From the NCBI GenBank assembly GCA_964247135.1, contig CAXTTL010000060.1, positions 5,220-21,638 on the forward strand: DNA of 16,419 nt, in the 5' to 3' direction. Under the pieces are notes generated by a model. The model made no database searches and was not told the origin of the DNA. It saw nothing but the letters and a program-made list of their open reading frames with translations. Positions 55 through 15,861 of the stretch are shown here, in pieces; position 1 is the first letter of the stretch, and every line of letters begins with the position of its first letter. The stretch comes from an uncultured Deinococcales bacterium. Lineage in GTDB: Bacteria; Deinococcota; Deinococci; Deinococcales; JAAFIG01. The position numbers and the translations under genes were made by a program.

Positions 55-2106
55 ATGACCCCACCAATTGCCAAACGTCTTGATTTCGTGACCGAACTAC
101 ACGGCATTCGTCGCAATGATGAATACCACTGGTTGCGCGACAAAGAAAACCCTGAAGTGATCGAGTACCTCGAGGCAGAAAACGCGTACTTGAAGCTCAG
201 CATGACGCACCTCGAGGCTTTGGAGGAAACGCTCTACCAAGAAATGCGGGGTCGAATTCAAGAATCTGACCTTGAAGTGCCAGTTCAGGACGGGGCGTAT
301 TGGTATTACTCGAGAACCGAAGAGGGCAAACAGTACCGTGTCCATTGCCGAAAACCCGAGAATTTGGATGCGCCCGAAGAGGTATTGCTCGACCTGAACG
401 CGATAGAACAAGCCGAGCAACTCCGTTTCTTGCAATTGGGTATCTACAGTCACAGCCCAGATCACACCCTGCTGGCTTACGGCTTAAACACCGATGGCGG
501 CGAAAAATATACGATTTACATCAAACGTTTAAGTGACAACACGATCCTCGAGATTATCGAAAATGGTTATTACGGTTTTGCTTGGGCGAGCGACAACCAG
601 CATTACTTTTTCAATCGGGTCGATGCCGCCATGCGTCCGCATCAGGTGTACCGCCGCAAGCTCGGTGAGAGTCTCGAGACGCTGGTTTACGAAGAATCGG
701 ATGAGATGTTCTCGTTGGGCATCCAGCGTTCCAAGTCTGGCGCGTATTTGCAAATCGTAAGTTATGCCAAAATCACCACCGAATTTCAGATTTTACCCGC
801 CAACGAACCCTTGGGAACTTGGCAGGTTTTTGCGCCCAGGGTGCGTGCGGTGGAGTACAACTTAAGGCATTTGCCAACTCGAGGTTGGTTGGTCATCACC
901 AACGAAAACGCCGAAAACGGCAAATTGATGCTCGTGCCTGAAAGCAACACCACAGCCCAGAACGCGACTCGAGAAAACTGGACGGAGTGGTTAGCACACG
1001 ATCAAAATCGTTTGATCGAAGCGGTGTATCCCTTCGATCAACACCTGGTCATTTGGGGACGCGAAGCAGGATTCACGCAACTTTGGGTTCAATCTCTCGA
1101 GGATCAAAACCTGCGCCGAATTCCCATGCCAGACGCGGTGTACACAATTTACCCAGGCGATAACCCAATGATGGATTCCAACGTTTTTCGCTGCCAATAC
1201 ATCAGTTTGGTACAACCGCGCCAAGTCCTCGAGATCAACCTATCAAACCTCGAGCGTCGCGTTTTCAAAGAAGAACCCGTGCTGGGTGGTTTTGACAAAA
1301 CCCAGTACGTCACCGAACGACTCGAAGCCACCTCACACGACGGCACAATTATTCCCATCAGTTTGGTCTACAAAAAAGGGGCACTCGAGCGTGGGGCGAC
1401 GGGATTGTACCTGTACGGTTACGGCGCTTACGGTTTCAGCATGGACCCGTACTTCTCGAGCAACAACCTTTCGCTCTTGGATCGTGGAATGATTTTTGCG
1501 GTAGCTCACGTGCGCGGTGGGCAAGAACTCGGGCGGCATTGGTACGATCACGGCAAATGGCTCGAGAAGAAAAATTCGTTTCTGGACTTTATTGCCTGTG
1601 CCGAGCACTTGCAAAAGATCGGTTACACCAGCCCCGAAAAACTGGCGATCTCGGGCGGCAGCGCTGGCGGTTTGTTGGTCGGTGCAACCGTCACGATGCG
1701 TCCAGATTTGTGCCAAGTTGTGGTTGCCAGCGTGCCATTCGTCGATGTTTTGAACACCATGCTCGACTCGAGTTTGCCTTTGACCGTGGGCGAATACGAT
1801 GAATGGGGCAACCCAAACGAACTCGAGTATTACCAGTACATGGCGTCGTATGCGCCTTATGAAAACACAAAACTAGCCGCTTACCCACACATTTTTGCCA
1901 CCGCAGGTTTGAACGACCCCAGGGTTTCGTACCACGAACCCGCGAAATGGGTGGCGAAATTGCGGGTGCAAAACACGGGCGATAACAGCATTGTGTTGCG
2001 CACCAACATGGGCGCAGGGCATGGTGGCTCGAGCGGCAGGTTTGAGCGTTTGCGTGAAGTGGCGAACGAATTTGCGTTTGTGCTCGATAAACTTGGACTT
2101 GCTTAA
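55..2106 (+). CDS. ptrB: Oligopeptidase B (protease II), peptidase S9A family
   Basis: 683 aa. N-terminal HGIRRNDEYHWLR, LYGYGAYG, AHVRGG, nucleophile GGSAGG, GLNDPRV (Asp) and GAGHGG (His) complete the S9 catalytic triad. Confidence 0.95.
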   Translation: MTPPIAKRLDFVTELHGIRRNDEYHWLRDKENPEVIEYLEAENAYLKLSMTHLEALEETLYQEMRGRIQESDLEVPVQDGAYWYYSRTEEGKQYRVHCRKPENLDAPEEVLLDLNAIEQAEQLRFLQLGIYSHSPDHTLLAYGLNTDGGEKYTIYIKRLSDNTILEIIENGYYGFAWASDNQHYFFNRVDAAMRPHQVYRRKLGESLETLVYEESDEMFSLGIQRSKSGAYLQIVSYAKITTEFQILPANEPLGTWQVFAPRVRAVEYNLRHLPTRGWLVITNENAENGKLMLVPESNTTAQNATRENWTEWLAHDQNRLIEAVYPFDQHLVIWGREAGFTQLWVQSLEDQNLRRIPMPDAVYTIYPGDNPMMDSNVFRCQYISLVQPRQVLEINLSNLERRVFKEEPVLGGFDKTQYVTERLEATSHDGTIIPISLVYKKGALERGATGLYLYGYGAYGFSMDPYFSSNNLSLLDRGMIFAVAHVRGGQELGRHWYDHGKWLEKKNSFLDFIACAEHLQKIGYTSPEKLAISGGSAGGLLVGATVTMRPDLCQVVVASVPFVDVLNTMLDSSLPLTVGEYDEWGNPNELEYYQYMASYAPYENTKLAAYPHIFATAGLNDPRVSYHEPAKWVAKLRVQNTGDNSIVLRTNMGAGHGGSSGRFERLREVANEFAFVLDKLGLA

Positions 2107-2109
2107 AGT

Positions 2110-2141
2110 TTAAATCACATCTCGAATTGAAATCTTTTTCG
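2110..2141 (-). repeat. Second, displaced copy of the recG 3' end (direct repeat with 3438-3469); att-like
   Basis: 2111-2132 taaatcacatctcgaattgaaa matches 3439-3460 taaatcacatcccgaattgaaa at 21/22, and 27/31 when extended. The minus strand reads KISIRDVI*, against recG QVSIRDVI*. Confidence 0.85.
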
Positions 2142-2297
2142 ATTCGGGTTCTTTTTGTATTTGTACAATTTCGATTCGACATATTTCTCATTGCTTGCAC
2201 TTTGTATAGCTGACACGATAGAATTTCGTAATAGCTGTATCTCAGCTAATTTGGTCGTGACAGATTTTTAAATTTCGGTTGGTTGTTTGGAGACTCA

Positions 2298-3404
2298 ATG
2301 AGAAATAGTAAAAGCGTTTTCATTCCGTTACTGTTGGCTTTTTTCGCAATCTTTTCATGGGGTTATGGTCAAGCTGCTTCAAACGATAAACAGGCTTGGG
2401 TCAGTGTTGGGCAATTTAAATCGAGTGGAAATTTTGCGTCATGCCAAAGGTACGACCTGTCCAAACTAACCTCTACATTGCTGGTCGATCAATTAAAAGC
2501 CAGTGGTCGCTTTCGACTTTTCACCGATGAACGGATTGCAGAATTGCGCTTTGGTGGTGAAATCACATCTTGCAATATCTCAGTTTCACAAATTTTATTT
2601 GTTACAACTGTAAACATTAGCTTTTCGGTAAATATAACTGCGGTTGATATTGTTACTTCTGAGCAAATTATTAGTGAAACGGTAAAAGGTGAAACAAGTA
2701 ATTCAAACATTAGTCTTATTGGTAATTTTGTTAGCGATGCAGACTTCAAAAGTGCAATTGAAGGTGTTTTTAAAGAAAAAATTCCTCAACTTGTGAATGG
2801 AAAAGAGTTGTTGCCTTATATGACTCATATTTTGGGCGAGCGTCCAACGTTGCCAGCAACTACGACAAACCCAAACACTCAAACACCAAATCCAACACCT
2901 ATTGTTGCGCCTACGCCGCCGAATAATGCCGCTACTTCAACAAGTGTTACTTCGGCAATTGATGCAATGTTTAATGGATTAAAAAATATGGACTTTAATT
3001 CTTTTAATAACAGCTTAAGCGATAATTTATTAAATCTCTCGAGTATTGGAAACCTTTCTCAATATGCGACACCTGAGAATAAAAGCATTTCGAGTAAAAT
3101 TACTTATTTCGTTCAATCTGTTCAGGATTTCCAAAACGCCTATACAGTTGTAGACCTCCTCGTAATAATTCCGACAAGTGCGGGGGCTTCAACTACAAAA
3201 AACTACAAAATCGGTGTTATAGATACAGGCGGAAATTTATCTCAAGCCTTTCCCAATAGAAAAAATCAAGGTTTAAAAATTCTTTTCTTGGATAAAATCA
3301 ATCCATTGCGAGGAATACCTCAATTGCCAATCTTTAATAGCTCGAGTGAGGCTGTAGAACAACTCCTCAAAGATTTTAACGCTGCGCTTGGAATAAATTT
3401 GTAA
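2298..3404 (+). CDS. Secreted hypothetical protein: CsgG/HfaB-like N-terminal domain, Pro/Thr linker, unknown C-terminal domain
   Basis: ATG 2298 follows GGAGA (2289-2293), so it is preferred over the ORF-track start at 2283. Signal peptide ends near GQA-A. VSVGQF..LVDQLKASGRFRLF..GEITS..VNITAVDIVTSEQIISETVKG resembles the CsgG/TolB-N fold. Low-complexity linker PATTTNPNTQTPNPTPIVAPTPP. Confidence 0.7.
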   Translation: MRNSKSVFIPLLLAFFAIFSWGYGQAASNDKQAWVSVGQFKSSGNFASCQRYDLSKLTSTLLVDQLKASGRFRLFTDERIAELRFGGEITSCNISVSQILFVTTVNISFSVNITAVDIVTSEQIISETVKGETSNSNISLIGNFVSDADFKSAIEGVFKEKIPQLVNGKELLPYMTHILGERPTLPATTTNPNTQTPNPTPIVAPTPPNNAATSTSVTSAIDAMFNGLKNMDFNSFNNSLSDNLLNLSSIGNLSQYATPENKSISSKITYFVQSVQDFQNAYTVVDLLVIIPTSAGASTTKNYKIGVIDTGGNLSQAFPNRKNQGLKILFLDKINPLRGIPQLPIFNSSSEAVEQLLKDFNAALGINL

Positions 3405-3475
3405 AACCAAAAAACTCGAGTGAAACAGGTTCAACTTCTAAATCACATCCCGAATTGAAACCTGTTCCGCTCGAG
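3403..3475 (-). terminator. Long hairpin overlapping the recG stop, followed by a U-tract; probable intrinsic terminator
   Basis: Arms 3415-3434 (ctcgagtgaaacaggttcaa) and 3455-3475 (ttgaaacctgttccgctcgag) pair with 18 Watson-Crick pairs, 1 G-U, 1 mismatch and 1 bulge. The minus strand continues TTTTTTGGTTTT. Confidence 0.6.
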
Positions 3476-5780
3476 CTTGCAATTCCACCTTTAACAGCGC
3501 ATTCACGGGTTTCTCGAGCATTGGGTCTTGCTCGAGAATCTGTTTTGCCAAATTCCGGGCTTGTTCGATGATTTCGGTATCTCGAGTCAGATCACCCAGT
3601 TTTAAGTCGGGCATTCCGCTTTGTCGTGTGCCGCGCAGTTCGCCTGGTCCGCGAAGGCGCAAGTCGGCTTCGGCAATCTTAAAACCGTCGGTTGTGCCTT
3701 CAATCACTTTCAGGCGTTCTTTGGTTTTTTTGCTGTGATCGCCCGCAATCAAAACGCAATAACTTTGCTTGTCGCCTCGTCCGACCCGTCCGCGAAGTTG
3801 ATGCAGTTGCGACAACCCGAAGCGTTCGGCGTTTTCGATCACCATGATGCTGGCGTTGGGAACGTCCACACCGACTTCGATCACGGTGGTGCTGACGAGC
3901 AAATCAAATTCAGATGCGCGAAAACGGTTCATGATCGCGTCTTTTTCGCTGGGGTGCATTTTGCCGTGCAAAAGTTCCACTCGAGCGTCGGGCAGAATTT
4001 GTTTGAGGTCTTCACTCAGTTGCGTGGCTGCCAGAATCTCGGTCATTTTTTCGGATTCTTCGATGAGTGGCGCGACCACAAAAGCCTGCCGTCCCTCGAG
4101 AATCTGTTTCATCACAAAGCTGTACGCTTGACGGCGGTGCGTGTCCATTAAAAGTTTGGTTTGAATCGGCGTGCGACCTGGTGGCAGTTCGTCGATGGTC
4201 GTCAGCTCGAGGTCACCGTAAGCCGTCAGCGCGAGGCTGCGCGGGATGGGCGTGGCGCTCATCACAAGCACGTCAGGACGGTTTGCGAGGAGGGCGCGGC
4301 GTTGTTGCACCCCAAAGCGGTGCTCCTCGTCCACCACAGCCAAGCCAAGGCGTGCAAATTCGACGCCTTCCTGGATCAGTGCCGACGTGCCAACGATCAC
4401 ATCGACCTCGCCTTTTTTGATGCGCTCTCGAGCCTCCACGCGTTCTTTGCCGGTCATCGCGCCGATCAGCAACTCGACCCGAACCCCAAGCGGGTACAAG
4501 TATTTGGTGAGGCTCGAGAAATGTTGTCGCGCCAGAATTTCGGTGGGAGCCATCAACGCGCCTTGAAATCCATCTCGAGTCGCCAAGTACAGGGCGCTGG
4601 CAGCCACGGCGGTTTTGCCCGAACCGACATCACCTTGAATCAATCGCGCCATCTGTTTGGGTTCGCGCATGTCGGCGGCAATCTCGAGAATCGCGCGGCG
4701 TTGAGCGTTTGTGAATTTGAAAGGCAGCATCCGTTCAAACTCGAGCATGTGCTCATCCAAGGCGCGAAATTGTTTGCCCTCCAAACTGTTGCCGCCCTGC
4801 AACAGCATCCGAAGCTCGAGGAATAAGTATTCGTCAAATTTCAGGCGCTCGAGTGCCGTTTCCAAGTCCTCGAGTTCACTGGGATTGTGTGCTTCACGCA
4901 AGGCTTGGGGGTAAGGCATGATCTTGTACATGCCGCGTTGCTGGCTCGAGAGAAAATCTTGGGGTTCGGGTAATGCCTCGAAGGTTTGACGTGTAACCTT
5001 GCGAATGAACGCTTGCGAGATGCCTTCGGTGGTGTGATACACGCCAATGATTCGGTCAGTGCTGAAACTCTCGCCGCCCTCATCGTCATTTTCGAAATAC
5101 TCGACACCAAGCTCGAGCTTGCGCCCAAATCGTTTGGCTTTGCCCGTGATGATCAGGCGGTTGCCCTCTTTCAGTTGTCCTTCGACCCAAGGTTGATTAA
5201 ACCAAGTGGCTGACAGCACATTGCCGAATTCGTCACGCAAGTTCGCCTTCAAAATCAACATGCCTTTGCGCGGCGAATGACGGGTTTTGTCCGTCACCGC
5301 GCCGACCACCGTCACTCGAGCGCCGTCTTCTATCGTGTGAAACCCGGGCAGTCGGCGGCGGTCTTCGTAACGTCTGGGGTAATTGTGGAACATGTCCCGC
5401 AAGGTTTTGATGCCAAGTCGAGCCAGTTTTTTTGGCGCACTCGGCACAAGTGGCAACCTGGTGATTTCCGAATCTGGTGTGAACGTCGTGCGCTCGAGCC
5501 TGGGAAGCTCGGGTTTTCTGGCTTGCACGGGTTTGGCGTTCGAGGTTGGTTTTCGTTCCGCCTCGAGCAAATCCAGCGCGGTTCGTAAATTTTCTGCGCG
5601 TTCCTCAAGGCTCATGATGCCGTAACCGTCCAGCACTTCCCGAACCTTGGGGAACGGTTGCGCCACATTGTTTAAAAGCGCCTCGAGTCCTGCCGTGACC
5701 ACACGGTTCTGACAGCCCATCGCCAATTCTCGCTCGAGGGGTTTCATCAGTCGTTCGCGCAGTTCATCGCGGGTTGGCAC
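3438..5780 (-). CDS. recG: ATP-dependent DNA helicase RecG
   Basis: 780 aa. Wedge domain ([14 protein letters not shown]), [63 protein letters not shown] and RGPGE..GTRQSG. GTG start. Confidence 0.98.
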
Positions 5781-5813: not shown

Positions 5814-5839
5814 GTAGGGGTAAACCTTGTGTTCACCCT
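5814..5839 (+). repeat. GTAG-type REP-like palindrome
   Basis: GTAG-GGGTAAAC-CTTGT-GTTCACCC-T: a GTAG tetranucleotide followed by an imperfect palindrome with one mismatch, in intergenic DNA. Confidence 0.55.
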
Positions 5840-5885
5840 TTATGGCACAACGATTTTTTATGTTTTGCATCAAGAATCTCGAGCA

Positions 5886-6704
5886 TCACCCCGAACTCAA
5901 GTTGCGGAATGCCTGATCTTCTGGCGGTGGTTTCTCGAGCGCGATTTGCGTCTCAGAAGGTTTAAACCCAACACTTTCGTAAATCTTGGCGGCGTGATAC
6001 TCGGGGTCGGCACACATCACCAAGACTCGAGCGTCCAATGTCTCGAAGGCGTGTTTGGCGGCAGTGTGGACCAGTGTTCCACACAATCCACGGCGTTGAA
6101 ATTCTGGATGTGTTTCAACACTCTGAAACCTGCCCACACCATGCTCGAGAAACAATCCAAGGCTCGAGACCATTTTGCCGTCCAAAAACGCGCCCCACCA
6201 GTTGCCCAGTCCCGCTTCGTTCATGCGTTGGTACTCGAGCATTTTGCGTTTGATGAAGAGCTTGTAGCCTTCGGGTTCGTGGTCATCGTTGCATTCGATC
6301 CGCAGTTGAACGGTTTGCGCCCAATCTTCTGGCGTTACAATCGGGCGGTATTCAGCCTCGAGATTCACTTTGGGCGGAGCGTGAACTTCGGTGGCGGTCA
6401 TGACAACAGTTTGGTCGAGTGTAAAGCCAAGTTTTTCAAAATCTCGAGCTGCGCCCATTTCGCCATTGACGCCATCGATGCCAAAAACCTGATGTTTAGA
6501 ATCTGGAAACTCGAGTTTGGAAATCTCCATCCAGCGCGTGATATCGGACGCTTTGGGCGGCTTGGGGAACAGGACATAATTTCCGTACCAAAACGTCGGA
6601 TTGCTGGGCGTGCGAATCACGGTGTACTCGCCGCGATCAATGACTTCACCCGAAAACCTCGAGAAAATCAGATCGGTTTGAAATCCCAAAGATTGAATTT
6701 GCAT
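5886..6704 (-). CDS. GNAT family N-acetyltransferase
   Basis: 272 aa. C-terminal VETHPEFQRRGLC (acetyl-CoA motif A) and AAKIYESVGF (motif B). Confidence 0.88.
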   Translation of the reverse strand: MQIQSLGFQTDLIFSRFSGEVIDRGEYTVIRTPSNPTFWYGNYVLFPKPPKASDITRWMEISKLEFPDSKHQVFGIDGVNGEMGAARDFEKLGFTLDQTVVMTATEVHAPPKVNLEAEYRPIVTPEDWAQTVQLRIECNDDHEPEGYKLFIKRKMLEYQRMNEAGLGNWWGAFLDGKMVSSLGLFLEHGVGRFQSVETHPEFQRRGLCGTLVHTAAKHAFETLDARVLVMCADPEYHAAKIYESVGFKPSETQIALEKPPPEDQAFRNLSSG

Positions 6705-6716
6705 ACCTCGAGTTTA
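6705..6716 (-). promoter_or_regulatory. Leaderless -10 TAAACT overlapping CTCGAG (GNAT gene)
   Basis: Minus strand reads TAAACT cgaggt ATG. Confidence 0.65.
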
Positions 6717-6752
6717 CAAACTTTGAAGCTCGAGTGTCACACGCCAAAGTGC

Positions 6753-7271
6753 TTATTGAATTGGGCTGAGCGTGGTTTCACGCAGTTGCACCAGACTCGA
6801 GTACCTTGTAATGGTATCGGTGCTTTGGGTTAGCTCGAGCTTGCCTGTAATCCTGATTTTTTCGCCTGTGGTCGGCAGTTTTTGACCGTTTGCCAAGTAC
6901 ACGAATACGCTGTCGGTCGAGACTGGCACGGCTTCAGTGTCCGCGTTCGGAAAAATCACGGTGATCGAACTCGGGTAATCCGCACTTTCATCGCACGGCG
7001 AGCAGACGGTTTTGCGTGTTCTGGTCAGTACAAAACGGTCTGGAATGTTCGGGTCGCTGGCTGCGAAACCCGTCAGTGTGACCAAATTTCCTCGCAACCC
7101 GAGCGTCTGTTTCGCATACACCGCGCCCCGTTCGTTGATGCTCGAGAACAGTTTTGGAATCTCGAGTTTGACGGCAGGTTTTTCTGGTTTTGAGAATGCG
7201 AAAGTGCTGATTGCTGCAATAATCGCGGCAATCAGCACCAGGGCGAAGATGTTATTTACTTTGGTTGGCAT
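6753..7271 (-). CDS. Membrane-anchored or exported hypothetical protein with CxxC; OB-fold-like (DUF3299/DUF1980-like)
   Basis: N-terminal hydrophobic segment, VTLTGF..FVLTR..CSPC and [12 protein letters not shown]. Overlaps the phosphatase 3' end by 20 bp, suggesting an operon. Family call is from pattern resemblance only. Confidence 0.65.
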
Positions 7272-10179: not shown

Positions 10180-10793
10180 TGGATTTCGCGTTTTTCCTCA
10201 AAGGCTTTTTGATTGGCATTTCAATTGCCGCGCCCGTCGGTCCAATCGGCTTGCTGACCATCCGCCGCACCTTAGCGTTTGGGCGTATCGCGGGCTTCAT
10301 GTCTGGTTTGGGTGCGGCAACGGCGGACGCGGTGTTTGGCAGCATCGCGGCGTTTGGCATCACCGCCATCTCGAGCGTTCTGATTGGGGCGAAATTTTAT
10401 TTGGGGCTGGTTGGCGGTATTTTTCTGGTCTATTTGGGTTGGCAAACTTTCGTCTCCAAACCCGTCGAGCGAGCCGCCGAATCTCGAGCATCAAGTCTGG
10501 GTGTGATTTATGCTTCGACCTTTGCGCTTGTCCTGACCAACCCGATCAGCATTTTGTATTTCACGGCAATCATCTCGAGCGTCGGCGCGGCTGGAAATTT
10601 GCTCAGTGCGAGTTTTATGGTGTTTGGTGTGTTCCTGGGTTCGGTGTCGTGGTGGTTTTTCCTGAGTTTTATTGCCGGTTTGCTCAAATCTCGAATCAAT
10701 CCAACAAGTTTAAAACTCGTCAATCAAGTCTCAGGCTTTGTGATTGCCGCGTTTGGGCTTTGGGCTGTCGCCAGCGTGTTATTCAAAATCTAA
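10176..10793 (+). CDS. LysE/RhtB family amino-acid exporter
   Basis: GISIAAPVGPIG, GLGAATAD, FALVLTNP and GVFLGSVSWW. Start overlaps the Lrp stop (GTG 10176 or ATG 10179). Confidence 0.93.
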   Translation: MMDFAFFLKGFLIGISIAAPVGPIGLLTIRRTLAFGRIAGFMSGLGAATADAVFGSIAAFGITAISSVLIGAKFYLGLVGGIFLVYLGWQTFVSKPVERAAESRASSLGVIYASTFALVLTNPISILYFTAIISSVGAAGNLLSASFMVFGVFLGSVSWWFFLSFIAGLLKSRINPTSLKLVNQVSGFVIAAFGLWAVASVLFKI

Positions 10794-10826
10794 GCGCAAA
10801 ACAGATTCTCGAGATACACTACAGCC

Positions 10827-11909
10827 ATGCTGAATTACCTGCTCATTTTTGTCCCGATCACCGCCTTGCTCGAGTTTGTGATTCATCCTGGCGACGTCTG
10901 GATTTTTATTTCGGCGGCGCTCGCCATCGTGCCGCTGGCGGGTTTGATGGGACGCTCCACCGAGGAATTGGCGGCTCGGGCGGGCAGCGCGGTCGGTGGT
11001 TTGTTGAATGCCACCTTTGGCAATGCCACCGAGTTGATTATTGCGTTTTTTGCGCTTCAAGCCGGTAAAATCGATGTGGTCAAAGCCAGCATCACGGGTT
11101 CGATGATTGGCAATTTGCTGCTTGTTTTGGGCATGGCGGTGTTTTTGGGCGGTCTGAAATTTCCAGTCCAGCGTTTTAACCGTCAAGCCGCCAGTTCGCT
11201 GGCGAGCATGTTGGTGATTTGCATCATTGCTTTTTTGATTCCGGCGATGTTCGATTTTACCGAGCGCGTCAATGGCATTCCTGGAACGCAACAAATTCTT
11301 TCCGATGGGCAGCTTTCGCTGGCGGTCAGTTTTGTTTTGATTGCCCTGTATGTCTTAAACATGGTCTTTAGTTTGTTCACCCACAAAGACATGCTCTCGA
11401 GTGCCGATGACGACGCTGATACCCACAAAGCCGAATGGACTCCGGCTCGAGCCATCGGCACGTTGTTTGCTTGCACCATCGTGGTCGCTTGGCTCTCCGA
11501 GGTGCTGGTCGGGTCGCTCGAGGGGTTCACGGCGGCGCTGGGGTTCTCAGAATTTTTTGCCGGTTTAATCATCATTCCAATTATTGGCAACGCTGCCGAG
11601 CACGCGGCAAGCGTGTTTGCCCGAAAGAACAAAATGGATTTGACCATCACGATTGCGATTGGGGCAACCATTCAAATTGCGCTGCTGGTCGCGCCGCTGC
11701 TGGTGATTTTGTCGTTTGTCATTGGCAAACCAATGGATTTGGTGATTCACAGCCCGCTCGAGTTGATGGCGTTGGTCGGCGCGGTCGGTATCGTCGGCAG
11801 TGTCGCCAGGGACGGCGAAACCAACTGGCTCGAGGGTGCGATGCTGCTGGGCGTGTATTTGATTATGGCAATCGCGTTTTTCTTTTTGCCTGTTGCCTCT
11901 CACAGTTAA
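10827..11909 (+). CDS. cax: Calcium/proton exchanger (CAX, CaCA family)
   Basis: Alpha-repeats GLLNATFGNATE and IIGNAAEH, plus GSMIGNLLLVLG and DGETNWLEG. Leaderless TACACT acagcc ATG. Confidence 0.94.
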   Translation: MLNYLLIFVPITALLEFVIHPGDVWIFISAALAIVPLAGLMGRSTEELAARAGSAVGGLLNATFGNATELIIAFFALQAGKIDVVKASITGSMIGNLLLVLGMAVFLGGLKFPVQRFNRQAASSLASMLVICIIAFLIPAMFDFTERVNGIPGTQQILSDGQLSLAVSFVLIALYVLNMVFSLFTHKDMLSSADDDADTHKAEWTPARAIGTLFACTIVVAWLSEVLVGSLEGFTAALGFSEFFAGLIIIPIIGNAAEHAASVFARKNKMDLTITIAIGATIQIALLVAPLLVILSFVIGKPMDLVIHSPLELMALVGAVGIVGSVARDGETNWLEGAMLLGVYLIMAIAFFFLPVASHS

Positions 11910-11932
11910 CTTGCCTGTTGCCTCTCACAGTT
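11886..11932 (+). repeat. Perfect 22-bp tandem duplication (period 25) of the cax 3' end
   Basis: ttgcctgttgcctctcacagtt at 11886-11907 and 11911-11932, separated by aac. Confidence 0.95.
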
Positions 11933-12010
11933 CAGCGTCAAGCTTCAAAACCTGCCAAAGCTCAACATTTCATGAATCTCAATCGGGCGCTCCTCGGGTA
12001 GACTCGGGTC

Positions 12011-12637
12011 ATGCGCTTCAATTGGAGGCACATTTTGAGTTTATTTCTTCTAAGCTGCTCTGGATTGGCGGCTTTGGCTCAAGTGCTGGTGTTTGAAGAT
12101 TCGTTCGACCAGGAAGGTATTTGGGACTCGAGAAACCTGAATGTCGGGCATTTTGGTTACGAAAACGGTTGGTTTCAGATTTTCATTGACAAACCCGACA
12201 GTTTTATTTACGTGCCCGCGCCGGTGCTGCCCGCCAAAGATGTCAGGCTCGAGGTGGACATTTCCAAGCGTTCGGGCGCAGCCTCCGATGAGGCTGGGGT
12301 GTTTTGCCGCCTTCAACTCGAGGGTGGGCATTACGAGCTGATGTTTAGCAGCGAAGCCCGAACCAGCGCGATTTACCGCGTCAGTGGCGACGAGTATGTG
12401 GCAATTGGACGTGCGGTGCTGCCGCCCGAAATCAAACTCAATGCTGGGGAAAAACCAAACCATTTGCGTGCCGAATGCGTGGGTTCAAAGTTACGTTTGT
12501 TTGTCAACGATTGGTTGACGCTCGAGGCGCAAGACAGCAATTTCGAGGGTGGTTGGGTCGGGTTGGCGGCTGGGACTGGAACGAAGGTCACGCAATTGAC
12601 CGCCGATTTTGATAATTTCAAATTGTTTGTGCTTTAA
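12011..12637 (+). CDS. Exported beta-sandwich protein, DUF1080/LamG-like
   Basis: Signal peptide, then FEDSF..W, DVRLEVD, AGVFCR, NHLRAECVGSKLRLFVND, GWVGL and ADFDNFKL. Leaderless TAGACT cgggtc ATG. Confidence 0.72.
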   Translation: MRFNWRHILSLFLLSCSGLAALAQVLVFEDSFDQEGIWDSRNLNVGHFGYENGWFQIFIDKPDSFIYVPAPVLPAKDVRLEVDISKRSGAASDEAGVFCRLQLEGGHYELMFSSEARTSAIYRVSGDEYVAIGRAVLPPEIKLNAGEKPNHLRAECVGSKLRLFVNDWLTLEAQDSNFEGGWVGLAAGTGTKVTQLTADFDNFKLFVL

Positions 12638-14305: not shown

Positions 14306-14413
14306 TGCTCGAGTTTGGGTATGCACTTAAGTTTGAGTTGGACTTGGTGTCACAAAAGTATTTCGTATTTGATGTCGTTTTACAGATTCACTGCTCGAGT
14401 CTAAGGATGCAGT
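14306..14413. repeat. Imperfect 22-bp direct repeat pair containing CTCGAG
   Basis: 14306-14327 tgctcgagtttgggtatgcact against 14392-14413 tgctcgagtctaaggatgcagt, 17/22 identical. Confidence 0.5.
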
Positions 14414-14601
14414 CTTTGTGATAGGGCATATTCATCGGCGAGATACGTTCCAGACTTTGATCACCAGAATTCATGTTTTGACTGGATAACAATTAAATAT
14501 GAGTATAATTGGTCAATACGTGTAGTTAAAAATACAATGGATAAGTGATTTGTGTAGCGAATGTGAGTTTTTTGTAAGATTTTTTACTTTACAATACTTG
14601 A

Positions 14602-15861
14602 GTGATAAATAGCGTTCGGTTTCTTAAAATTGGTTTTGTATTGACCACCATAGCGGCGCTTGTTCCCCTGGGACGGGGCGCAGCCTTCTGGTCAACTTCA
14701 GAATTGCAGACCATCGAATCGTTACGATTGGATTCAAAGGGCAGCGTTTCAGCCGACCCAACAAATACAGTTGCGAACAATGCACAAGCGGCAAACATCG
14801 GTTACAAGTTGTTTTACGACAAACGCCTCAGTTCGGAGGGCGATGTTGCCTGCGCCACCTGCCACAATCCAGAAAAAACCTTCACCGATGGCAAAATCCT
14901 TTCCGAAGGCGTTGGCAGAACCAATCGCAATGCCCCAACGATTGTTGGCGCTTCGCACAACACCTGGCAATTTTGGGATGGACGGGCAGATTCATTGTGG
15001 CAACAGGCGTTAGGACCACTGGAAAACGCCAACGAACACGGATTTTCGCGGGTCGCTGTCGCCAAACTTGTCGCCAAACAATACCGTAGCGAATTTGAAA
15101 CTGTTTTTGGACCCATGCCAGATTTTGAAGACGATTATCGCTTTCCAGAAAACGCCACGCCGTTAGGCGACAGCGATGCACTAAACGCTTGGAAACAAAT
15201 GAACGAATCTGATCGCGCCTATGTCAACACGGTCTTTGTTAATGTCGGTAAATCAATCGAGGCGTTTGAGCGCCAAATTCAACCAGGATTCTCGAGGTTC
15301 GATCAGTACGCGCAATCCCTGAGCAAAGGGACAAACTCCGATGATCTCAACGCCACTGAAATCTCGGGTTTGCGGCTTTTCATTGGCAAAGCAGGTTGTG
15401 CCACTTGTCACACTGGAAGCCAATTCAGCGACGGGAAATTTCACAACACTGGTGTGCCACGAAACCCGGATACACCACTCGATCAGGGTCGTCAAGAGGC
15501 GATGGGCAACCTTTTTAAAGGCGAATTTTCTTGCAAAAGTACCTTCAGTGATGCAATCGAGGCTTGCCCCAAAAATTTCCAAGCCTCCACCGATGCGCAG
15601 TTGATCCGTGCCTACAAGACGCCGTCGTTGCGGACAGCCGCCATGACCGCACCATACATGCACGCTGGACAATTTGCCACACTGACACAAGTCATTGCCC
15701 ACTACCGAGATGCCCCCAAAGCGCCACTTGGAACCAGCGAGATCAAACCATTGTCACTGACCAACCAAGAAATGCTCGAATTGGAACAGTTTATTAAAAG
15801 TTTAAACGCGCCGATTGATGCGCCAGTTAAATTTTTGCACCCACCGCTCGAGGGCAATTGA
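14602..15861 (+). CDS. Di-heme cytochrome c peroxidase/MauG superfamily protein
   Basis: Two CATCH heme motifs, LFYDKRLS, RNAPT, QFWDGRA, YKTPSLR and APYMHAG, with an N-terminal signal segment. Leaderless TACAAT acttga GTG. Confidence 0.92.
   Translation: MINSVRFLKIGFVLTTIAALVPLGRGAAFWSTSELQTIESLRLDSKGSVSADPTNTVANNAQAANIGYKLFYDKRLSSEGDVACATCHNPEKTFTDGKILSEGVGRTNRNAPTIVGASHNTWQFWDGRADSLWQQALGPLENANEHGFSRVAVAKLVAKQYRSEFETVFGPMPDFEDDYRFPENATPLGDSDALNAWKQMNESDRAYVNTVFVNVGKSIEAFERQIQPGFSRFDQYAQSLSKGTNSDDLNATEISGLRLFIGKAGCATCHTGSQFSDGKFHNTGVPRNPDTPLDQGRQEAMGNLFKGEFSCKSTFSDAIEACPKNFQASTDAQLIRAYKTPSLRTAAMTAPYMHAGQFATLTQVIAHYRDAPKAPLGTSEIKPLSLTNQEMLELEQFIKSLNAPIDAPVKFLHPPLEGN

Follow-up and report, generated by a model that had tools for sequence, protein, structure and literature searches.

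In a stretch of 16,419 nucleotides (nt) from contig CAXTTL010000060.1 of an uncultured Deinococcales bacterium (hereafter, the window), the 3' end of the helicase gene recG is present twice, and the two copies enclose a 1.3-kb segment that is low in guanine-plus-cytosine (GC) content and holds a single gene, which we refer to as the cargo gene. All of our data fit an insertion into the recG tail that would have restored the gene and displaced its old end. Our favored reading, to which we give an even chance, is that the segment is a one-gene islet gained by horizontal transfer, lying in a slot with exchangeable contents that starts within the last recG codons, and that it entered through host recombination in which recG served as the homology anchor and the second junction was illegitimate or based on short homology. 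The initial annotation of this DNA had likewise read the segment as DNA that entered the 3' end of recG, re-formed the reading frame, and pushed the previous tail aside, and this reading is supported by the close relatives, which carry other cargo at the junction, and by an independent second case in a more distant relative.

The duplicated recG tail and the DNA between its copies

The recG gene itself is intact (3438..5780, minus strand) and encodes an ATP-dependent DNA helicase of 780 amino acids (aa) with the Pfam domains RecG_wedge, DEAD, Helicase_C, and RecG_dom3_C. Its functional 3' end (copy B, 3438..3469) closes with the stop codon TAG. The displaced orphan end (copy A, 2110..2141) lies on the same strand, reads SKKISIRDVI*, and closes with TAA. 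A repeat search of the window returned the two as a 31-nt direct repeat (2111-2141 and 3439-3469) with 27/31 (87%) identity, within which a 22-nt core (2111-2132 and 3439-3460) matches at 21/22 positions and has only these two occurrences in the window. None of 200 dinucleotide shuffles reached two matches to the core, and none of 100 mononucleotide shuffles contained any pair of 22-mers with at most one mismatch. The sole core mismatch, CGA in copy A and CGG in copy B, is synonymous. The repeat had been described in the initial annotation with the same identities and is confirmed by the search and the shuffles; translation likewise confirmed the synonymous mismatch, the two stop codons, and the match of copy A (SIRDVI*) to the recG end. 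Upstream of the core, 9 nt of copy A encode KKI at a place where the conserved residues of RecG are EQV, and an extension of the repeat upstream of the 31 nt was insignificant (325/1000 and 159/2000 shuffles were equally good). Across the relatives that we compared, which comprise 80 recG loci and 1.19 Mb in total, the 22-mer had five hits at up to four mismatches, all of them recG tails, and it is thus not a dispersed repeat, a condition on which the earlier interpretation had depended. The stop codon of the upstream ptrB-like gene (TAA, 2104-2106) is separated by 3 bp from the complement of the copy A stop (2110-2112), as had been noted. The orphan carries TAA together with CGA, as does the natural recG allele of one close relative (L004), which would place the junction inside the recG tail and not after it.

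The inserted DNA between the two tails (2142..3437) has a GC content of 0.369 compared to 0.519 in the rest of the window, in agreement with its first description as AT-rich. The GC content at third codon positions (GC3) is 0.30 in the cargo gene, 0.61 in ptrB, and 0.62 in recG, and the two repeat copies mark the exact limits of this deviation in GC and GC3. The islet is filled by the cargo gene (2298..3404, plus strand, 368 aa; ATG at 2298, GGAG at 2289-2292) with 156 nt upstream and 33 nt downstream of it, and no pseudogene-sized stretch of DNA is left unexplained. A distant-mode search of the islet DNA against plasmid collections gave no match. The islet had been called poor in the palindrome CTCGAG, which holds per kilobase (2.3 sites versus 7.2 in the rest of the window) and fails relative to composition, by which the islet is enriched 20-fold (3 sites observed versus 0.15 expected) and the host 27-fold. 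Two of the three islet sites occupy the same positions in a homologous copy from the close relative L005. This enrichment and the two common sites suggest a long stay in, or an origin from, a CTCGAG-rich genome and favor a donor that belonged to the CTCGAG-rich lineage of the window itself. Purifying selection acts on the cargo gene: compared to the L005 copy, its nonsynonymous divergence (dN) is 0.11, its synonymous divergence (dS) is 0.91, and dN/dS is 0.12. The dS of the cargo gene is somewhat above that of recG (0.60).

The slot behind recG in other genomes

The closest relatives of the window RecG at the protein level come from uncultured Deinococcales genomes. Five such genomes (L001 to L005) are close relatives of the window, with RecG proteins 95-96% identical to that of the window and DNA at ~85%; recG DNA identity among these genomes is 84-92% and extends up to the stop codon. 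Between the window and L001 to L004, DNA homology ends exactly at the recG stop codon. Behind recG, L003 and L004 carry a DUF3885 gene and a GNAT acetyltransferase gene, and the L001 contig ends 232 nt past recG, inside a DUF3885 gene. L002 carries one open reading frame (ORF) of 401 aa in DNA with a GC content of 0.286, and L005 carries a homologue of the cargo gene with 79% protein identity, in the same place and orientation and at a GC content of 0.350. The next gene in L002, L003, L004, and L005 encodes a major facilitator superfamily (MFS) transporter. The recG slot therefore has three alternative contents among these five genomes, and the cargo gene is absent from four of them; in a tblastn search with cargo family members against the 80 recG loci, L005 was the sole locus hit. 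The DUF3885-GNAT pair looks native, with a GC content of 0.445 and 8.7-9.7 CTCGAG sites per kb. The last ~18 nt (L002) and ~12 nt (L005) of the GNAT ORF persist before the MFS gene, which indicates that the low-GC cassettes replaced the DUF3885-GNAT pair. The 401-aa ORF of L002 (10555-11760) is rich in Lys, Asn, and Ile, contains a single CTCGAG, and has no Pfam, NCBIfam, or PADLOC match.

The window and L005 islets are homologous from the recG stop as far as position 2153 of the window. Both carriers have the proximal junction and the TAG stop in common but differ in their distal junctions, with the tail copy and ptrB in the window and the GNAT remnant and the MFS gene in L005. One conserved and one variable junction are what anchored illegitimate recombination predicts. 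The recG stop codon tracks the cargo, given that it is TAG in both islet carriers, TAA in all three DUF3885-GNAT carriers, and TGA in L002. No second recG tail beyond chance was found in L001 to L005 by a mismatch search or by local alignment with shuffles; a 10/14 in-register resemblance at the distal end in L005, seen by eye, was insignificant in the search. In the recG tree of the six genomes, the window is the earliest branch (93/96 support) and L005 is nested beside L003 (97/97 support), so that the islet carriers are not sisters. Together with the GNAT remnant in L005, this indicates that the islet reached both lineages separately or was exchanged between them. Approximately 4 kb from its islet, L005 also has an ORF fragment (14319-14681, minus strand) that by eye resembles the C terminus of a tyrosine recombinase; homology with L003 runs to the last L005 bases, and the region is thus not specific to an islet carrier.

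A second case emerged when the 4 kb downstream of recG in 59 loci were scanned for another copy of the recG tail of the same locus. The only locus flagged, L057, scored 28.5 against a null maximum of 12.5 and comes from the complete chromosome record of a Deinococcales bacterium whose RecG is 75% identical to that of the window. Its functional recG tail (10298-10334, stop TGA) and its displaced tail (11031-11067, stop TAA) are identical at 33/37 positions, and all four differences are synonymous or fall in the stop codon, which fits two genuine recG alleles. The 698 bp between the tails encode a Phd/YefM antitoxin and a PIN toxin and contain 7.2 CTCGAG sites per kb, a native-like density; a BglII-like restriction endonuclease and then an MT-A70 methyltransferase are encoded past the displaced tail (slot 10335-12588). 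Both tail copies start at the homologous CTCGAG of recG, where the repeat begins at a shared CTCGAGG, and a decayed extension of the repeat further upstream is possible at a borderline level (13/1000 shuffles were equally good). No recombinase was found in the L057 islet, and the locus has no notable hairpins. From a comparison of the proteins and a reading of the ends, the window and L057 islets have no sequence in common except each host's recG tail. The closest locus to L057, L059, has ~4 kb of other genes before an ORF of 480 aa that the two share, and the slot behind recG in L057 and L059 appears to be an accessory-gene hot spot as well. With the window counted, 15 loci of the CTCGAG-rich lineage were tested and 2 have a displaced recG tail, which none of the 45 other loci tested has. 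These comparisons indicate that the recG end is a point at which insertions recur and leave orphan tails behind.

Routes of insertion

In the host-recombination reading that we favor, the incoming DNA would have come from a related genome in which the cargo already lay directly behind its own recG, as it does in L005. The recG gene would have provided the homology anchor for recombination with the resident chromosome, and an illegitimate or short-homology second junction would have formed immediately upstream of the stop codon of the resident recG. The working recG end (TAG) would arrive with the incoming DNA, and that of the resident (TAA, at 3 bp from the ptrB stop) would be displaced distally as the orphan. 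The same product could result from the single-crossover insertion of a circularized molecule of recG tail and cargo via the ~22-nt identity, a route that we group with the favored reading because host recombination alone suffices for it. One junction does lie within extended homology, as anchored recombination requires, namely recG up to its stop and the proximal junction common to both carriers. The host route is further supported by the lack of a recombinase, by the lack of a common element backbone, and by the native-like CTCGAG content of the cargo. No recombinase or transposase domain was detected in the window ORFs scanned (5 ORFs in one domain scan and 10 in another).

Illegitimate recombination facilitated by homology was proposed to account for displaced 3' orphans in type VI secretion system (T6SS) effector-immunity arrays of Vibrio cholerae and in Rhs and contact-dependent growth inhibition (CDI) loci (PMC5361080). 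In the cited part of that report, as here, a conserved upstream gene serves as the anchor, cargo enters behind or into its 3' end, the old 3' portion is kept downstream as an orphan, no dedicated integrase takes part, and close relatives carry alternative cargo. Relative to the loci described in that part, the recG cases differ in that the anchor is a housekeeping helicase gene and not a polymorphic toxin gene, the orphan measures no more than 31-37 nt, the cargo is unrelated to the function of the anchor gene, and the mechanism is one that we infer.

At a later step, the orphan tail and an inverted 12-mer would have been recruited as a terminator for ptrB, and recG codons copied in inverted orientation at the opposite islet end would have come to form a terminator for recG. 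The first of the two hairpins (2121..2148, plus strand) has a 12-bp stem and a 4-nt loop, is followed by a T-run at 2149-2158, and makes a terminator-like site 15 nt past the ptrB stop. Its 5' arm (2121-2132) is part of copy A, and its 3' arm (2137-2148) is an inverted copy of a recG-tail 12-mer. The plus strand of 2095-2165 folds at -16.6 kcal/mol (z -3.46) compared to -7.5 kcal/mol for the minus strand, an asymmetry that arises because two G-U pairs form only in the plus-strand RNA. This hairpin is likely an intrinsic terminator of ptrB. The second is a long imperfect inverted repeat around the recG stop (3415..3475, minus strand), followed by a T-run that is the complement of 3403-3414. Its arms are made up of recG coding sequence and the proximal islet end, where a stretch of ~20 nt of islet DNA is complementary to the codons just upstream of the tail. 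The minus strand of 3400-3480 folds at -30.5 kcal/mol (z -4.6) and the plus strand at -25.7 kcal/mol (z -5.8); a shorter version of this hairpin is present in L005, and it is likely the recG terminator. Both window hairpins thus have recG-tail sequence built in, yet they are unrelated to each other in sequence. A third copy of the recG-tail 12-mer, TTTCRATTCGRG, lies at 2169..2180 (plus strand) with one mismatch, which brings three of these 12-mers into 60 nt (2121-2180) at the distal islet end, in the orientations minus, plus, and plus. The 12-mer TTTCRATTCGRG contains a tandem TTCGA pentamer and has five hits in the window versus 0.72 expected, a number that none of 200 shuffles reached. A hairpin-ended element of the insertion sequence IS200/IS605 type, or of a kind like the palindrome-associated transposable elements (PATEs), was considered and rejected, given that the hairpins are unrelated, that L057 has none, and that the window has no transposase. 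An integron cassette was rejected on its anatomy.

Several observations weigh against the favored reading. No donor sequence was observed, and a sliding-window identity comparison revealed no donor-like mosaic tract in the 3' part of the window recG. The initial annotation had suggested the ptrB-recG junction of relatives as the place to look for different cargo or an empty site; different cargo does lie behind recG in relatives, and no empty ptrB-recG site was seen among the 80 loci, in none of which ptrB lies within 8 kb of recG. The ancestral adjacency of ptrB and recG that it had found plausible is therefore drawn from the structure itself and has no counterpart in those loci. If copy A is the resident tail, three nonsynonymous changes must have accumulated or been selected for the hairpin in order to give KKI for EQV, and an element-borne mimic would explain KKI more directly. 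The third 12-mer and the cluster at 2121-2180 are unaccounted for by any model that we considered. Among 15 loci, the same gene end has twice received an insertion that duplicated its tail, which is more often than a purely haphazard process would lead one to expect, and the reading may presuppose natural competence of the uncultured hosts. In L053 (10319-10320), and also in L010 and L011, the recG stop directly adjoins the end of a convergent alpha/beta-hydrolase gene; near-abutting convergent gene ends, as in the ptrB-recG layout that we envisage, do occur in this group.

A possible but rather doubtful alternative is a site-specific cassette, in which the recG tail would be the bacterial attachment site (attB), the islet a minimal non-autonomous element with a tail-mimicking attachment site of its own (attP), and the recombinase encoded elsewhere. 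The initial annotation had raised much the same idea of recG as an attachment site for a cassette mobilized in trans. The near-identical 22-nt core with poorer similarity outside it would suit such a site, and the remainder of copy A, beyond the core, matches the islet in being AT-rich and lacks the codons for RecG residues, as expected for the non-coding arm of attP. This alternative also accommodates the exact restoration of recG, the differing cargo at the same junction in relatives, and the recurrence of the event at one gene end in L057, where an independent tail-flanked module carries other cargo; the three tail-derived 12-mers in alternating orientation would be candidate protein-binding sites. 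However, a recombinase is lacking from the islet, from the window ORFs scanned, and from the L057 islet, the islet of L005 lacks the distal repeat and would require extra deletions, and L002, L003, and L004 are without a distal repeat too. The window and L057 islets share no backbone, only each host's recG tail, and the strong hairpins of the window are missing in L057, which leaves no common site architecture. That the L057 differences are all synonymous over 37 nt suggests real alleles and not a recognition site. The core is found nowhere but in recG tails in the 1.19 Mb of related loci, and there are no matches in plasmid or phage collections. Xer-dependent integrative mobile elements exploiting Xer (IMEX) are integrase-free, borrow host recombinases, and use the chromosomal dif site. 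The recG islets resemble these elements in being small, cargo-only DNA flanked by direct copies of a chromosomal site and without a recombinase of their own, and they differ in that the site is a coding 3' end; no dif-like site was identified, although no model for one was applied.

A more far-reaching and, in our view, unlikely proposal is that the recG end is a dedicated docking point for recombinase-free mini-cassettes, which would carry an envelope protein in one case and a toxin-antitoxin pair in the other, with the CTCGAG palindrome as a portable joint. CTCGAG-bounded cassettes would be cut, joined, or annealed at the ~7 sites per kb, through a host nuclease or recombinase that acts on the palindrome or through microhomology. 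The basis for this proposal is that the L057 tails start at the recG CTCGAG and that the window repeat stops right beside the same site. If true, it would tie a genome-wide iterated palindrome to gene-cassette traffic.

We consider it very unlikely that the islet is the remnant of a larger element, such as a prophage or genomic island, from which the integrase and other genes were deleted so that one cargo gene was left between attL and attR. The repeats resemble attachment sites, the GC content is low, and integrative elements commonly target gene 3' ends, as in the cited parts of two reports on integrase-mediated genomic islands in the 3' ends of protein-coding genes, of which Salmonella genomic island 1 (SGI1) at trmE is an example (PMC8409611, PMC6531882). 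Islands of this type, as those parts describe them, resemble the recG islets in that they insert a few codons before the stop, the gene end is restored by the incoming DNA, and direct repeats flank the insert. They differ, on the same basis, in that the recG islets lack integrase, excisionase, and mobilization genes, measure 0.7-1.3 kb compared to tens of kilobases, and have no conserved element backbone, and in that the repeat is missing in L005, the other carrier of the window islet. The window islet thus has the flanking repeats of an integrase-type island, whereas its only ORF of at least 100 aa has no recombinase domain, and the same attachment structure is not found in every carrier (it is missing in L005, and among 59 other loci it is seen in one, L057, with other cargo). 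A remnant is made still less credible by L005, which has the same 1.3-kb unit and proximal end, so that the reduced form must have moved or been inherited, a point that also speaks against the suggestion of a remnant in the initial annotation. The cargo and its flanks have no similarity to phages, plasmids, or defense systems, and the interior contains no pseudogene-sized unexplained DNA. Among the matches listed in our literature search, none describes integration targeted to recG.

Least credible of all is that there was no insertion, and that a local duplication or templated fold-back built the ptrB terminator beside a fast-evolving resident gene, or that the structure is an assembly chimera: copy A and the inverted 12-mer do form a good plus-strand-specific terminator directly after ptrB, and the window is probably metagenome-derived like its relatives, but the copies bracket exactly the segment of deviant GC and GC3, the gene is missing in four of five close relatives, L057 has the same architecture without any hairpin, and a 31-nt repeat with four mismatches should not be able to drive misassembly at the k-mer sizes suggested by the contig names of the relatives.

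The cargo protein, neighboring genes, and implications

The modeled structure and the N terminus suggest that the cargo protein is most likely exported and associated with the envelope. The initial annotation had described one gene led by a Shine-Dalgarno sequence with a secreted-looking product, which agrees with the GGAG motif and with a predicted leader in the form of a hydrophobic helix at residues 9-19. Two domains follow, with a Pro/Thr-rich linker between them. An AlphaFold model built from 13 sequences reached a mean predicted local distance difference test (pLDDT) score of 74 and replaced a first model from 7 sequences that was too poor (pLDDT 43). In Foldseek searches against the PDB, the predicted fold resembled FlgT, CsgG, PelC, LptE, and related envelope proteins (E ~1e-6), with matches to FlgT (3w1e, E 1.3e-6), CsgG (4uv2, E 1.7e-6, target template modeling [TM] score 0.44), and Cj1090c (7rxu, target TM score 0.66). 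The cargo scored 17.4 bits against Pfam CsgG (PF03783), below the gathering cutoff of 20.8, and a distant homologue (P0013) scored 29.4 bits, above it. The likeness to these envelope proteins consists of the predicted fold, the weak Pfam CsgG signal, and the N-terminal leader suggesting export; the cargo differs from them in its two domains, in its very small family, and in the absence of a lipobox Cys. No Cys is present in residues 1-48, and the sequence thus does not have a lipoprotein signal. The family comprises 7 close proteins among 5.8 billion clusters, and a second search returned 7 representatives among 1.8 billion, of which 6 are distant. A search of the ESM Atlas gave subthreshold matches only (0.77), and the protein had no match in phage collections. 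Neither the cargo, nor the 401-aa ORF of L002, nor the DUF3885 protein had a hit in PADLOC or NCBIfam. Upstream of the gene, a putative promoter-like sequence (TTGCAC-N18-TAGAAT, 2195..2224, plus strand) was identified by eye; the region is 78-85% identical to L005, and a consensus scan did not return it.

The rest of the window consists of ordinary chromosomal genes only: an S9 peptidase, recG, an alkaline phosphatase, an Lrp/AsnC regulator, a Na/Ca exchanger, trmD, a TIM-barrel enzyme, and a cytochrome c peroxidase. The S9 serine peptidase is the ptrB-like gene, which is complete (55..2106, plus strand) and matches Pfam Peptidase_S9_N (1.5e-84) and Peptidase_S9 (1.8e-64); against the NCBIfam oligopeptidase B model it scores 507 bits, under the equivalog cutoff of 1313 bits. 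Scans of the window returned no tRNA genes and no Rfam matches. Divergent from recG, an ORF of 334 aa (5829-6833, plus strand) has no Pfam or NCBIfam match and is 53-59% identical to its counterparts in L002 to L005, far more diverged than the neighboring genes. The Na/Ca-exchanger ORF has at its 3' end a perfect 22-nt direct repeat (11886-11907 and 11911-11932, spacing 25 nt).

CTCGAG is abundant in the window as a whole, with 111 sites in 16.4 kb versus 4.1 expected. The loci of the lineage (L001 to L013, L053, L057, L059, and L074) have 5-9 sites per kb, or 15-34 times the expectation. The palindrome is enriched 3- to 6-fold in Trueperaceae loci and is nearly absent from the loci of Deinococcus species (L014 to L043), mostly with 0 sites where ~6 are expected. 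The two copies of the islet, in the window and in L005, are also acquiring sites independently of each other. The pattern resembles the iterated palindromes of cyanobacteria. A literature search on highly iterated palindromes and CTCGAG found nothing, and one on CTCGAG overrepresentation in Deinococcus gave nothing relevant among the matches listed.

In summary, the window gives a base-pair-resolution view of how small accessory modules may enter a chromosome through the end of a housekeeping gene without a recombinase of their own. The short orphan gene end that such an event would leave behind is a datable scar. In the window, this scar appears to have been reused as a transcription terminator, which would make it a small example of exaptation. 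The two independent cases and the three alternative sets of cargo suggest that this group of uncultured Deinococcales has a recombination hot spot at the recG 3' end.

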